This document shows positions 53,369 to 63,739 of a stretch of DNA of 64,000 nt, piece after piece. Origin of the DNA: an uncultured Verrucomicrobiae bacterium (GTDB lineage Bacteria > Verrucomicrobiota > Verrucomicrobiia > Limisphaerales > Palsa-1400); NCBI GenBank assembly GCA_963702845.1, contig OY969763.1, forward strand, positions 5,952,001 through 6,016,000, given 5' to 3'. Position 1 is the first letter of the stretch. Each line of letters starts with the position of its first letter. The position numbers were made by a program, and so were the translations under genes. The notes below the pieces were generated by a model that saw only the letters and a list, made by a program, of their open reading frames with translations, was not told where the DNA came from and searched no databases.

Positions 53369-53472
53369 GCGAAGAGCGCGAACATTATGGGATAGGGATA
53401 AACGATAGGGATACTCGATCCGAAACGGACGATTTCAAAAAACGGATTTGTGTCAATAGTTGGGACTGACAC
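53369..53472 (-). mobile_element. Degenerate Y1 (IS200/RAYT-like) transposase remnant with terminal 23-bp hairpin
   Basis: 53369-53445 repeats 55391-55485; hairpin GTGTCA-ATAGTTGGGAC-TGACAC at 53450-53472. Confidence 0.55.
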
Positions 53473-53502
53473 TTGCACTCTGCTTCCAAAGGCGCATCTA
53501 AT

Positions 53503-55041
53503 TCATTTCTGTGCGGATGTTTTCATTAGCTTTTCCAAATCCGACAACCGTTTTTCAAGTGCCTTGATTTGAGAATCCTTTTCCTTGAGTTTTTCATTCA
53601 AGCCCTGGATAGCTCCCAAGGCCACGCCGCCTTCGTCCACAATGGCGATATGCCGGTCATCTGGCCCGACTTTGAAAACGGCATAAAAATCCTGCGCCAT
53701 GGGGCCTATATGCCGCGTCTTGGCATCGGCCTTGAAATTCCAGCTGGAAATCGGCAGACTGGCGACCCGCTCCAGCATCTCCCGTCCATCCATGGGTGCG
53801 AAATGCTCCTTCAGATTCCGGTCGCTGTTGTTAATAAAGTTTTGTGCATACATGTCGGCGGTGGCAAAGACATTATTGCTGGCGATGAGGTTGTTGGCAG
53901 CGATGAGGTCGCCGGTGGCGCTGACGTTACCGCGTGCAGAGACATTGTCCAGATTGGCGTTATTGCCCTGCAAGTCAGCGTTCGCATAAAGGGTTCCGGC
54001 GACGTCGATGTCCCCGGTGGTGCGGAAGTTGTTCACGAGCAAATCCCCGAAAACGATCGCCCCGTTTCCGTCCTTGTCTACCCCAAATCGCTGCGCGCCA
54101 GAAGAGGAAAACCGCAGAGCGCCCGTGACGGTTCCATAACCCGGAACATTCATATTGCCGGAGTCAATGGTCCAGACACCGACCGCATTAAGGCTACCCG
54201 GATTCCCCTTCGGTCCCTGTATACCTTGGGGGCCGGCAGCACCGGTCGCACCCGTTGGCCCGACTGGACCAGTAAGCCCGGTCGCGCCAGTTATACCAAT
54301 GAGTCCTTGGGGGCCAGTCAGCCCGGTTACTCCCCTTGCCCCGACTGGACCAGTCAGTCCGGTTACTCCCCTTGGCCCGACTGGACCCGTAAGTCCGGTC
54401 GCGCCAGTTTTACCAATGAGTCCTTGGGGGCCAGTCAGTCCGGTTACTCCCTTTGGCCCGACTGGACCGGTAAGTCCGGTCGTGCCAGTCTTACCAATGA
54501 GTCCTTGGGGGCCGGTCAGTCCGGTTACTCCCCTTGGCCCGACTGGACCCGTAAGTCCGGTCGCGCCAGTTTTACCAATGAGTCCTTGGGGGCCAGTCAG
54601 TCCAGTTGCTCCTTTAGGCCCCACTGGACCCGGAGGTCCGGTCGCCCCGGTGGGTCCTTTGCCTGCGGGTCCATCCAATGCATAGAGAGCGTAAGGCACG
54701 GTAAGAATTTGGGTGCGTGGAGCAATGGTGTTGCCTGCAATGGTGATTTCCATCCAGCGGGCTGTTCCGATGAATGCATTCGTCCCAAAATCGAGAGGCA
54801 CTGAAAATGCACCGCTGACAAGATTAACCGAGGCATCAATGCTGCCACTCACCTGATTGCCTATGGTCGCGGCGTCATAGAGGGTGAAGCTCATGGCATA
54901 GACGCCATTATCATTGGCATTAGACCCTGCGAGTTGTCCCTGAAAATTGAATGCCGATGTGCCTTGGGCATCACATCGAGGCATAAAAGTGAAAAGAACA
55001 GAACTGACCAGTAAAACAAAAAAGCCTGAAATAGTTTTCAT
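53503..55041 (-). CDS. Secreted collagen-like protein with C-terminal peptidase S74 / intramolecular chaperone domain
   Basis: Signal peptide, FNFQGQL N-domain, long Gly-X-Y tract, SDRNLK...W.FK...HIGPMAQDF and terminal coiled coil. Confidence 0.88.
54200..54665 (-). repeat. Collagen-coding tandem repeat (about 81-bp, 27-aa unit)
   Basis: About four copies of [15 protein letters not shown]+[12 protein letters not shown]. Confidence 0.85.
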
Positions 55042-55071
55042 TTTTTTGAAGGAGTTGAACAACACTAGTTA

Positions 55072-55351
55072 AAACTGATAGGAAATTGCTTTTTGACGCT
55101 GGCGCGGTTAAGGGAGAATTGCTTTTCACAATGTCTCATTTTTTGAGGATGCTGCGCCCGTAGAAACGTTCAGTCAAGTGACCTTACGCATTCCGGTGCA
55201 TCGCTTACGGTCCTGACGACTGCGGTGGTCAATTTGGAGCCAAAAACGGCTCGGTCGAGGCAGACCCCAACCGTTTCCAAAAAACCGATAGGAAATCGCT
55301 TTTGGACGCTGGCGCGGTTAATTGCAAAAAGGATTTCGCGCGAAGGTTTCG
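55072..55351. repeat. 280-bp dispersed leader element, copy 1, with internal 40-bp direct repeats (55072-55111, 55282-55321)
   Basis: Colinear match to 63459-63739. Confidence 0.9.
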
Positions 55352-55390
55352 AACCGCCGACTGGGAATCGGGGCTCGCTCCGCTCGGGGA

Positions 55391-55485
55391 GCGAAGAGCG
55401 CGAACATTATGGGATAAGGGATAGACCGCGCCGGGATACTCGATCCGTAACGGACGAGGGTGACGAGACGATTTCAAAAAAACGG
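55391..55485 (-). pseudogene. N-terminal remnant of a Y1 (IS200/RAYT-like) transposase
   Basis: Minus strand encodes RPLRIEYPGAVY, the typical start of this family; TGACCCC-type motifs nearby at 55544, 55585 and 55620. Confidence 0.65.
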
Positions 55486-55682
55486 TTGCTTACCAATTTC
55501 CAAAAACGTCGATTTGATACGCGAGCACGTCATCAACATCCGGTGACCCCCATCCGCTGACGCATCAAATCCGCTGTCATCTCCTGACCCCCATCACCTG
55601 TCACTTGGCCACTTAGAACCGACCCCTTTATGGGCCGGCTGGAAACCAGCGTTCCGAATCGTCAAGCCCAAGCGTATCAATA

Positions 55683-55705
55683 GCTGCCGGCTTTAGACCG
55701 GCAGC
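55683..55705. terminator. GC-rich hairpin downstream of the rhodanese gene
   Basis: GCTGCCGG-ctttaga-CCGGCAGC; weak U-tract. Confidence 0.45.
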
Positions 55706-61414: not shown

Positions 61415-61657
61415 AACCCGGACCCTTCACACGTGAGCCTCACGTTCATTTGACAGGCGGTCTGGAGGCGCGTCAGTTTAGGGGAATAGGGGCGGTGTCG
61501 CAACTGTTGTTTGGTCGGCGACTTCGCACGTCGACAGTCCCCAACTTTCCTTTTCCCCGCGCGGCCGTCGCGAGACAACAAATCAGTGCAATCCGTGGTT
61601 GGTCCGAAACCGACGTTCATACGAGGCGGACGTTCATGCGAGGCCGACGTTCGGCCT

Positions 61658-61729
61658 TGTAACGGGTCCGCAGAGCGTCTGTAACGCCTTTTGTAACGGG
61701 TCAAACCCCCTGGAAGGATGGGGGTGGGA
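61658..61729 (+). repeat. Dispersed TGTAAC-repeat element, short copy
   Basis: Matches 43585-43702 but lacks the central segment. Confidence 0.72.
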
Positions 61730-61859
61730 TCCGCGTTCCCTTTTTCGATATTCGATATTCGATAGCCAAGTGGTAACAGCATCGCTCGATGCATTGATCA
61801 AGGAATCGTGCCAGCCCTGACGCGGGGAAGATCGTCCGAGGTATCCGCCGCCTGGTAGA

Positions 61860-62204
61860 AGGCCCCTGCTCGATATTGACGGGCGTCGTGTCGGTCTGCG
61901 CGTTACCCAGGATCCATGAACTCGCGAGCGCGGGCGACCCGTTGGGCGGCAGGTAGTCCCTGTTATCGCCAACGTACATGTGATAACAGAATTGAAGTTG
62001 CCTCATGTTGCCGAGGCACTGGATGGTTCTGGCTTTGGCTTTGGCCCGGGCCAACGCTGGTAATAACAGGGAGGCCAGGATCGCGATGATCGCAATGACT
62101 ACCAGCAACTCGATGAGCGTGAAGCCTGGGAACGGGCCTGGCGTACAAATCGCGTGTGTGCTCCCGCTGACGCACCTTTTCTTTGCTGTGCGAAGAAGGT
62201 TCAT
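61860..62204 (-). pseudogene. Truncated prepilin-type N-terminal cleavage/methylation domain protein (PVC-type)
   Basis: [29 protein letters not shown]...C..N.RQ; similarity appears to end after NIEQG and the frame runs into repeat DNA. Confidence 0.75.
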
Positions 62205-62347
62205 TCGTATTGCTGACGTCTGCTTTAAAGACGATGAATCAAGCGACAGAAGGAGGCGATTGAAATCTGGCGATCTCCGAATTGGTTTTTCTGGTGGGAC
62301 TAAGCTTGGCGGATTGAAAATGGTGCAGTGTCAATAGTTAGGACTGA

Positions 62348-62767
62348 TAAGCATTAAGGGCGCTGGCTGAGGAAGGTCTCCTCGCGGTAGAACGTTGTTT
62401 GTCCGACGAAAGACAAAACAACAAACCGAAGGGAGACCCTATGAAGCGTAGTTTAATGGCTGCCATCGACCTGCACAGTAATAATTTATTTTGCGGCATC
62501 GTCGATGCGCAGGGCCGACATGTGTTCGATAAAAAACTTCCCGGGATGGGCGCGCGGCTGGAAAAGCAAAAGAACCTTAAAAAGCAGGCCGGCGCTAGAT
62601 CCTGATGGTGACTGACCGGATCGCTTCAACCGAGGCGATTACGAATCAGACGAATGAAAAGATGGGTTCGAATGCAGCTTGCAAAAAATCGGCAGCTATA
62701 GAGAAACTCAATTTAAAAATTGAGAACAGCAACATTTTGCCTTATTGACACGCGCCCTAATGGGTGA
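62348..62767 (+). mobile_element. Internally deleted IS110-family (IS1111-type) element
   Basis: Subterminal inverted repeats CATTAAGGGCGC (62352-62363) and GCGCCCTAATG (62752-62762); TGA core on both sides; transposase stub AIDLHSNN....IVD..G at 62441-62542; TTGACA at 62745. Confidence 0.78.
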
Positions 62768-63458
62768 CACCTGGTCGTCCGCCGCCTCGCAATTGAGCGA
62801 TGTATTGCAATTCGTGCAGCGCCTTTTCGTCGCGCGGGTCCAGTTGGAGGCATCTCTGGTACAGGCTCTCGGCGTCGTCCAATTTACCGAGTTCGACCAT
62901 TACGAATGCCTCGCCTCTCCACGCGCGTCGCCGGGCGACATTACCGTTGCCATCATTTTCGGGTGTACGGAGCGCTACCTTGGCGAAACACTCAAGAGCT
63001 TTATCCCAGACACGGGTCCGTTGATAAGCGTAACCAAGCTCGCATAAGAATTCGGCGTTCCCCGGCGAAAGGGCCGCCGCCATGTTCATATGTTCGATCG
63101 CCTGATCGATGTTTCCTTGTTCGACAGCGATGAAACCCTTGACAAAGTAGGCGTGCGCATACCCGAATGAGACCACGATTGCCGTCACATTATCCATGGC
63201 GGCCTGGCCCAGACAGCAGATCGTGTCCAGCGCTCCTTCGGCACAGTAAACCCGCTCTTTTCTGGTTCCGTATAGTTTTTCGAACTCACGAATTACCGGA
63301 TTGATGAAATCATCCAGAACTGCTTGAAATTTTCGCTCGCGCACGATCATCTGCCAGACTTGCTGATTGTGCGCGCGATATCGGTCGAGATGGGGAGATT
63401 CCGATGGCGAGCCAGGTGCCGGATCGCTATTTCCACCGGGAGGCTGTGATAGATTCAT
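62757..63458 (-). CDS. TPR-repeat protein
   Basis: Three TPR-like units (AYFVKG.., ELGYAY.., AWRG..); the stop codon is supplied by the IS right end. Confidence 0.8.
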   Translation of the reverse strand: MNLSQPPGGNSDPAPGSPSESPHLDRYRAHNQQVWQMIVRERKFQAVLDDFINPVIREFEKLYGTRKERVYCAEGALDTICCLGQAAMDNVTAIVVSFGYAHAYFVKGFIAVEQGNIDQAIEHMNMAAALSPGNAEFLCELGYAYQRTRVWDKALECFAKVALRTPENDGNGNVARRRAWRGEAFVMVELGKLDDAESLYQRCLQLDPRDEKALHELQYIAQLRGGGRPGVTH

Positions 63459-63739
63459 AAACTGATAGGAAATTGCTTTTGGACGCTGGCGCGGTTAAAG
63501 GAGAATTGCTTTTCACAACAACTCATTTTTGGTGATGCTGTGTCTGGGGAGGCATTGAGTTAAGGTGACTATGCGCATCCCGGCGCATCGCTTACGGTTC
63601 TGACGAATGCGGCGGTCAATAAGGAGTCAAAAAACGCCTCGATTGAGGCAGACCCCAACCGTTTCCAAAAAACCGATAGGAAATCGCTTTTTGACGCTGA
63701 CGCGGTTAATTGCAAAAAGGATTTCGCGCGAAGGTTTCG
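63459..63739. repeat. 280-bp dispersed leader element, copy 2, with internal 40-bp direct repeats (63459-63498, 63670-63709)
   Basis: Colinear match to 55072-55351; abuts the ATG of the TPR gene. Confidence 0.9.

Follow-up and report, generated by a model that had tools for sequence, protein, structure and literature searches.

Two genes in the 64,000-nucleotide stretch of DNA analyzed here (the window), from an uncultured Verrucomicrobiae bacterium, raise the question of how unrelated coding sequences come to share both what precedes and what follows them. Pfam assigns collagen and Peptidase_S74 domains to the first gene and TPR to the second, and each is preceded by the same leader of about 280 bp (55072-55351 and 63459-63739; 87% identical over 282 columns). 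The same hairpin follows each gene, intact behind the first and split behind the second by a 420-bp IS remnant, and degenerate Y1 transposase gene starts (remnants A and B) flank the first unit as direct repeats that share 87% identity over 67 bp (Table 1). In all of this a preliminary description of the locus was borne out; its proposal that a Y1 enzyme mobilizes leader, cargo and hairpin as one cassette was not. Judging by sequence comparison, the leader is the oriIS end of a rolling-circle, ISCR-type element of the IS91 family whose gene has been lost, and we consider it highly probable that both leaders are non-autonomous oriIS ends of an ISCR-type element of the Verrucomicrobiota.

The link between leader and enzyme comes from loci that were selected by transposase protein alone. 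In 18 of 27 such loci this oriIS end lies 3' of the gene, usually about 230-290 bp past the stop codon, and a core (the 38-bp oriIS tip) is found 400-670 bp downstream, on the expected strand every time. This is a profile-based count; a regular-expression count of 21/26 was set aside, as its pattern had been built after the loci were viewed. A profile of the 3' regions of intact transposases matches the window at 55074-55271 (E = 1.1e-11). The linked transposases carry the Pfam domains Y2_Tnp and Zn_Tnp_IS91 and are of the HUH type. In locus L083 the long end directly follows the Y2_Tnp C terminus, and L257 and L256 each hold a transposase together with an oriIS variant of its own and, further on, short cores of the same variant. 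The core occurs in 34 of 53 transposase-positive genomes compared to 45 of 348 others, counts that include related and thus non-independent genomes. The terminus lies 4 nt after TTCCTAT in both window copies, as it does in ISCR1, ISCR2 (ISVsa3) and an IS91-family element taken from plasmid records.

The conserved terminus is at 55074 in copy 1, 32 bp before the collagen/S74 ATG (55041), and at 63461 in copy 2, 2 bp before the TPR ATG (63458). Each leader holds the 38-bp core twice, 210 bp apart. At their right edges, copy 1 continues into DNA common to G000:1023326 (G000 being this genome) and copy 2 into DNA common to G000:1946750, so the element does not end where the shared block does on the right. 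The inner edge of copy 2 is best read as a rearrangement.

Table 1. Features of the two units and their surroundings, in window positions
Feature	Position	Strand	Basis
Remnant A: degenerate start of TIRYT Y1 transposase gene	53369-53449	-	
TIRYT terminal inverted repeat, intact; 5'-type end of remnant A, which comes next on the minus strand	53450-53472	-	
Collagen-repeat/Peptidase_S74 gene, downstream of oriIS copy 1	53503-55041	-	Pfam
Long oriIS end (210 bp), ISCR/IS91-family, terminus 55074, without transposase gene; putative	55074-55283	-	3' profile, locus survey, terminus comparison
38-bp oriIS tip (core); recurs genome-wide, punctuates arrays	55074-55111	-	
Predicted outward promoter: -35 TTGACT 55177-55172, 17-bp spacer, weak -10 55154-55149	55149-55177	-	presumed activity
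Second (variant) core plus 30-bp flank, duplicated along with the long end	55284-55351	-	
Remnant B: degenerate start of TIRYT Y1 transposase gene, terminal repeat gone	55391-55490	-	
Solo TIRYT terminal repeat, larger part (remainder 62768-62770); replaces native TPR 3' end	62328-62347	-	
IS110-family element, internally deleted (420 bp), inside the TIRYT repeat	62348-62767	+	
TPR gene	62757-63458	-	Pfam
Long oriIS end, copy 2, terminus 63461; putative	63461-63671	-	3' profile of transposase loci
Second core plus 30-bp flank, copy 2; runs on into a different repeat	63672-63739	-	

Some observations count against this identification. No IS91/ISCR-family transposase exceeded the cutoff in this genome (a single contig, 90% complete) and none was found in two incomplete congeners, which leaves the exact window variant without an acting enzyme in these three. 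Target preference is loose, unlike the tetranucleotide of IS91: TT precedes the end in 41 of 170 cases, the commonest 4-mers account for only 9 and 7 of the 170, and the parent sites in some cases resemble the first bases of the element and in others differ. For a subterminal palindrome, z was 0.38 and -0.09 in the window copies and -2.41 in one relative, and no consensus hairpin or structure emerged from 51 aligned ends.

Both window units are probably old and inactive, given their 87% identity and the failure to find the transposase. The empty sites in relatives that the preliminary description had anticipated did not appear for either unit among 30 family genomes; in a congener, the rhodanese gene has neighbors different from those in the window. 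For the collagen gene no close parent was found, the best matches being 46-52% over parts.

Three other identities were considered for the leader and rejected. A structured RNA leader is opposed by the lack of any Rfam match in 52000-64000 and of a consensus fold, a conserved leader peptide by a short core frame that shifts with the length of a T run and is not conserved, and a phage element by the absence of the pattern from the viral contigs (viral_contigs).

The long end appears to carry an outward promoter. A -35-like motif lies about 102 nt before the terminus in 33 of 49 long forms, compared to 5 of 49 on the opposite strand; the promoter-like motif of copy 2 (63535-63563) has a changed -35, and a strict promoter scan did not call the window promoter (55149-55177), which counts against our reading. 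The genes beyond long ends are all co-oriented with them where scored (23 sense, 0 antisense, 6 unscored), and co-orientation extends to short cores (28:13 and 40:11). An outward promoter, as predicted, ahead of variable co-oriented genes gives the long end the makeup of an ISCR1-like expression end. That part of the preliminary description, a fixed mobile-element expression end before variable genes with an HUH enzyme likely acting in trans, holds, with the correction that the linked enzyme is of the IS91/ISCR family rather than Y1. The layout itself is already known for ISCR1, whose outward promoters drive downstream genes, 84% of them co-oriented, and whose oriIS region is described as 232 bp long (PMC6218425). 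The verrucomicrobial element shares with ISCR1 an oriIS region of about 230 bp that follows the transposase gene and stops at the same distance from TTCCTAT, as well as the mostly co-oriented downstream genes. The two transposases are related, at about 30% identity, and both have the HUH motif and a single tyrosine at the same aligned position. The verrucomicrobial element differs in that the end occurs without transposase in many copies, also as 38-bp tips in co-oriented arrays, and in that the window ends lie outside a class 1 integron context, with a promoter predicted from sequence.

In this genome 22 copies of the 38-bp core reach E<=0.01 among the 33 matches listed. The second end of the short copies is sharp, since 90 of 133 stop at nt 37-40 whatever their sequence variant, and paired cores are far more often on the same strand (124) than on opposite strands (11). 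In 18 of 25 arrays that mix long and short forms the long end, scored as last, stands at the head, and in 7 this polarity is broken; in both window units the long end comes first, contrary to the majority and thus against our reading. Identical 38-mers are repeated in the arrays of genome G055, and stutters of the first 5-24 nt of the tip occur in 15 of 191 cases compared to 1 of 184. Core-to-core distances run from 24 to 4941 bp (n=75). The cargo between cores consists of unrelated fragments, many cut mid-gene, and reaches as far as the next core or a TIRYT repeat; in a few cases (e.g., L025 and L035) the core frame is fused in frame to the cargo. Flank comparison of 124 short cores, against a small reference set of this genome and the retrieved loci, gave 7 matches, all to loci that also hold the core, and no solo 38-bp insertion with continuous flanks. 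Simple insertion of a 38-nt mini-end predicts such flanks, so this too argues against our reading. Template switching at the inner core end was rejected, microhomology being mostly absent from the few informative junctions.

These co-oriented arrays of putative 38-bp oriIS tips, in which the second end is sharply defined and a long end mostly stands at the head, appear to be what is new beyond ISCR1. A title and abstract search, with subscription journals outside its coverage, returned no published account of such arrays or of the verrucomicrobial family. IS801 is described as leaving right-end-only fragments of fixed lengths (229, 360 and 679 nt) by one-ended transposition, with a transposase that can act in trans and adjacent DNA that is mobilized (PMC3189936). 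The verrucomicrobial ends resemble IS801, so described, in all three respects; they differ in a dominant fragment of only about 38 nt, in forming arrays, in flanks that are unrelated where those of IS801 are an interrupted target, and in a loose choice of target.

We infer the following history for the ends. A transposase, either once resident or supplied in trans, would have made a nick at the oriIS end and linked that end to new DNA. Ends that came to lie just before a start codon would have been retained because their outward promoter would drive the gene, as that of ISCR1 does. The same enzyme would leave rows of 38-bp tips between unrelated fragments, in most cases outward of a long end. 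By the most probable route, premature termination would produce a 38-nt mini-end, one-ended transposition from it would carry adjacent DNA, and the carried piece would be rejoined at the nick of a resident oriIS.

A variant of this last step, which leaves the identity of the leader the same, is that arrays are built in a programmed manner: an ISCR-type enzyme would insert foreign DNA at a resident oriIS by nicking, copying 38 nt, joining to the foreign DNA and resealing, so duplicating the tip each time while the long end, with its promoter, heads a growing expressed array reminiscent of an integron or CRISPR. The sharp second end in all variants, the identical repeats within arrays, the long-end polarity, the partial-tip stutters, the lack of continuous flanks and the co-orientation of short cores with genes all favor it. 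Two rounds of one-ended transposition as described for IS801 (PMC3189936) could yield the same arrays, however; the inner end of the short core resembles a target-like tetranucleotide in many copies, and there are the seven arrays of broken polarity. We regard this variant as possible but doubtful. Equally tentative is its fullest form, in which the verrucomicrobial transposase would use two fixed origin-end positions 38 bp apart, insert random kilobase-sized DNA, duplicate the tip and build polarized, promoter-headed arrays. Were it true, these would be a platform that samples genes much as an integron does and is run by an HUH transposase, with no attC needed in the cargo and usable in trans after loss of the transposase gene, and the window units would be its single-gene products.

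Integrons, too, have a fixed site with an outward promoter at the head of co-oriented variable DNA. The arrays share this promoter-bearing end; they differ from integrons in lacking attC at cargo ends, in pieces often cut mid-gene, and in a linked enzyme that is an HUH transposase rather than a tyrosine recombinase. From CRISPR arrays they differ in their irregular spacing, with no regular short spacers.

It is unlikely that the ends are passive debris, made by random deletion of IS91 copies and homologous recombination and without a role after decay. Most IS801 fragments in Pseudomonas syringae have been attributed to reorganization (PMC3189936), and the window copies are diverged, with rearranged inner edges; random decay, however, would not place the ends of so many short copies (90 of 133) at nt 37-40, nor would it make stutters or rows of identical 38-mers.

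If the oriIS reading is correct, the family bears on a wider problem. The capture of resistance genes is attributed to ISCR elements, whose transposition is described as lacking experimental demonstration (PMC6218425, PMC13393415). The environmental verrucomicrobial family would make this capture mechanism directly testable in the laboratory, since its natural junctions are numerous, its minimal end is 38 bp long, its second end point is sharp and, in L257, an intact transposase (3219-4610) lies beside its own array.

The hairpin had been taken for the terminator of the cassette. By its position around intact Y1 genes, which it flanks as inverted copies in L083 and at G000:1145393/1146388, it instead belongs to a separate TIRYT element as its terminal inverted repeat, with no apparent relation to the leader. 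TIRYTs or TIRtrons (TnpA-Y1 subclass 2.1) are described as a Y1 gene within inverted terminal repeats that bear a GGGGWSAS motif, the repeats being dispersed as a family (PMC3733652, PMC6006769). The L083 repeat fits this motif and this genome carries a one-base variant; the Y1 gene of about 326 aa, the flanking repeats and their dispersal are likewise in line with that description. Hairpins number 20 in this genome at <=5 mismatches, compared to 2 in the shuffled genome, and up to 51 per genome elsewhere, as befits a dispersed repeat family. The window differs in keeping only gene stubs, of which remnant B reads PRPLRIEYPGAVY on the minus strand, and solo repeats; these would explain the hairpin and not the leader, and hairpins and Y1 remnants would be TIRYT debris within the same variable islands.

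The cassette moved by a Y1 enzyme has some evidence in its favor. Three units in this genome, the third at G000:1150982-1151893, have the order core, co-oriented gene, hairpin; two intact TIRYT genes exist in this genome; Y1 genes or repeats lie near cores in L083, L084, L076, L257, L262 and L263; and there is a weak genome-level correlation across 121 genomes (rho = 0.18, p = 0.05). The 5 cores paired as in the window, compared to a circular-shift mean of 0.13, exceed that expectation and count against our own reading, although two of the three units are the finding itself. Those 5 are out of 25 oriIS copies, however, and 3 of 20 hairpins are so paired, leaving 20 cores and 17 hairpins unpaired. 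Near 199 deduplicated cores in other genomes, hairpins lie about equally on the cargo side (4, from 3 loci only) and the inner side (6); G063, G083 and G126 hold 43-51 hairpins and zero cores, and G120 holds 17 cores and zero hairpins. Leader and hairpin are thus distributed largely independently, although their local co-clustering, as in the third unit, is real. With so few pairings, a leader from a different transposase family and a TPR paralogue that has neither part, a Y1-driven cassette is not supported and is very improbable.

That paralogue (G000:3239171-3239893) is 78% identical to the TPR gene in DNA and about 8 codons longer, and the similarity ends at both junctions, on the oriIS side and on the hairpin side. 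One TIRYT repeat would have truncated the TPR gene, and an IS110-family element would later have struck that repeat. TGA stands at both junctions of the IS remnant, and a relative in genome G028, which carries Transposase_20, occupies the same position in the same kind of hairpin.

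All features named in the preliminary description are present in the sequence (see the table). The two leaders are 87% identical to each other, with a conserved edge that lies 32 bp ahead of the collagen/S74 start and 2 bp ahead of the TPR start. Each is composite rather than a single unit: two cores, the first of 38 bp, are separated by 172 bp, and 30 bp follow the second.

Features of the window and related sites (G000, genome carrying the window; L-handles, fetched loci)
Feature	Position	Remarks
Leader, copy 1	window 55072-55351	ahead of collagen/S74 gene
Leader, copy 2	window 63459-63739	ahead of TPR gene
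Hairpin 1	window 53450-53472	intact
Hairpin 2	window 62347/62768	split
IS110-family element	window 62348-62767; L268:985-1010, 4990-5005; G000:2817611, 4525116, 1151923	at one same position of the TIRYT repeat
Intact Y1 genes, 326-327 aa	G000:1145393/1146388; L083	hairpin as inverted terminal repeat
Third core-gene-hairpin unit (L042)	G000:1150982-1151893	stuttered core, co-oriented gene with signal-peptide-like start, TIRYT repeat, IS110 end; 5 kb from intact TIRYT gene
Replic_Relax (PF13814) gene	L257:2033-3001	immediately upstream of intact IS91-family transposase heading an array
Terminase large subunit (Pfam Terminase_6N) and upstream 200-aa gene	window 50575-52757	between nuo genes and island; other phage genes not seen; G000 has paralogous stretches at other sites
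Low-GC block (49%)	window 56517-61414	556-aa unknown gene, split-looking gene series, two response-regulator genes
Prepilin-type N-methylation gene	window 61701-62204	apparent break or replacement in the 3' part, near 61830

Both leaders are orphan oriIS ends of an IS91/ISCR-type element, the core being the tip of that end. The long (~210-bp) form of the end sits immediately after a Y2_Tnp C-terminus in metagenome locus L083; full-length relatives have both Y2_Tnp and Zn_Tnp_IS91, and the source annotates one of them as an IS91 family transposase. Thirty loci were picked by transposase protein alone, and 27 were scored after exclusion of three with <500 bases downstream. The core was found in 18 of them (E≤0.05), 400 to 670 bp past the protein match and invariably on the strand that puts its fixed edge downstream of the transposase gene. 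The likely mobilizer of the leader is an IS91-type transposase and not the Y1 enzyme previously proposed. A profile of the 3' region, built from six transposase loci (five plus L188), matched window copy 1 with an E value of 1.1e-11 over 218 profile positions and copy 2 more weakly. The terminus lies 4 nt past TTCCTAT in ISCR1, ISCR2, an IS91-family element (plasmid records), and both window copies. An HUH motif is present in the transposase; of the two tyrosines in the IS91-family row it has, as does ISCR1, the second one only. Across 401 genomes, in which kin are not independent, the core occurs in 34 of 53 transposase-positive genomes versus 45 of 348 transposase-negative ones. In G000, a single 6.03-Mb contig with the window at C1:5952001-6016000, neither of the two Pfam families nor the full-length transposase gave a match and, given the link of transposase to oriIS end, the window copies are therefore orphans. 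The transposase was not found in two congeners, both incomplete. Several transposases (L180, L184, L191) share a short palindrome in their upstream DNA, where a gene also begins in the divergent direction.

G000 has 22 core copies at E≤0.01 among the 33 hits listed, frequently as direct repeats with 0.8 to 3.9 kb between them. A DNA search detected the core in 18 of 61 genomes; within the order, an exact pattern detected it in 79 of 401 genomes, with 0 matches for the reversed control pattern. The outer edge of the copies is fixed and the inner extent is variable. Counts are very high in comparison genomes G248 (60 matches), G055 (32), G125 (26), and G104 (22), the last giving, as in G000, no transposase match with the query used. 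At L047, L055, L057, L062, L070, L072, L085, and other loci, apparent integron cassette arrays from many metagenomes, the core stands with constant flanks ahead of one gene and the DNA further out is variable.

The hairpin, taken previously for the end of a cassette, is instead the inverted terminal repeat of intact TIRYT Y1 genes, an arrangement that fits what PMC3733652 and PMC6006769 describe for TIRYT, subclass 2.1. At 53450 the repeat forms the 5' end of the adjoining Y1 stub. A paralogue of the TPR gene in G000 (78% DNA identity) has neither oriIS nor hairpin, and similarity ends at both junctions; the native last codons of the TPR gene are replaced by the hairpin. The IS within hairpin 2 is classed as IS110-family: a relative in genome G028, which interrupts a hairpin of this kind at the identical position, carries Transposase_20. 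The occurrences in G000 and G028 suggest that this element targets TIRYT terminal repeats. The G028 copy is itself broken by another IS.

The pairing of leader and hairpin holds as local co-clustering and fails as an obligatory cassette. Three units in G000, with 5 of the 25 cores and 3 of the 20 hairpins between them, show a hairpin within 3 kb on the cargo side of the core. Circular shifting gave a mean of 0.13 against the 5 cores seen, but two of these units are the ones that prompted the question, and the shift leaves variable islands uncontrolled. Around 199 deduplicated cores from other loci there are four cargo-side hairpins (3 loci) and six inner-side ones (2 loci), in ~240 kb each. 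Some genomes have 43 to 51 hairpins and 0 cores, another has 17 cores and 0 hairpins, and the two correlate weakly across 121 genomes (rho 0.18).

Short cores end at nt 37 to 40 in 90 of 133 cases, a sharp inner stop seen in different sequence variants. G055, with 32 pattern matches, has many as same-strand rows of identical 38-mers 49 to 3565 bp apart; core pairs overall are 124 same-strand versus 11 opposite. In 18 of 25 mixed arrays the long end is the final one on the nicked strand, which places it at the head of the row as the promoter reads; the 7 exceptions include both window units. The intact transposase of L257 has its long end and two short cores of the same sequence variant behind it. 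A partial copy of the tip (its first 5 to 24 nt) lies ahead of 15 of 191 cores versus 1 of 184 controls. Flanking DNA is frequently cut mid-gene, target preference is only loose, and no consensus hairpin was found in the oriIS ends. Right-end miniatures are already known, as are oriIS ends of the ISCR type that carry outward promoters; the short 38-bp cores, same-strand rows, and sharp second end differ from ISCR1, and we found no account in the open-access literature of 38-bp oriIS arrays or of this ISCR-type family in Verrucomicrobia.

The identity of both elements, the loss of the transposase, the fixed ends, and the orientation bias are established here. A cognate enzyme acting in trans would nick and join at the oriIS end, and selection may favor ends sitting ahead of start codons. 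Read conservatively, the arrays would reflect two rounds of one-ended transposition and re-joining at a resident end, following the IS91 model (PMC13181058, PMC5714925), with IS801 miniatures as a precedent for one-ended transposition (PMC3189936). A bolder and rather doubtful reading has foreign DNA inserted directly, with duplication of the 38-bp tip; missing solo insertions slightly favor it. Among 124 short cores no continuous flanks were found, except against 7 loci themselves holding a core.

As a predicted expression end, the oriIS end has a -35-like motif ~102 bp inside in 33 of 49 long forms (a few being misclassed tandem cores) versus 5 of 49 when the opposite strand is scanned. The motif is present in window copy 1 and altered by one base in copy 2; a strict promoter scan covering the copy 1 region made no call there. 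By a codon model trained on G000, the top-scoring coding frame in DNA past the long ends is co-oriented in 23 cases, opposed in 0, and unscored in 6, compared to 74:94:32 in random windows. This resembles ISCR1, for which PMC6218425 reports 84% of downstream genes co-oriented and driven by two outward promoters; the promoters there are experimentally shown, and ours are predicted from sequence. At L025, L035, L023, and L020 the cargo genes are fused, in frame, to a short frame crossing the oriIS end, which could give a start codon to 5'-cut cargo genes. Within the window, the low-GC block is possibly a degraded defense or signaling island.
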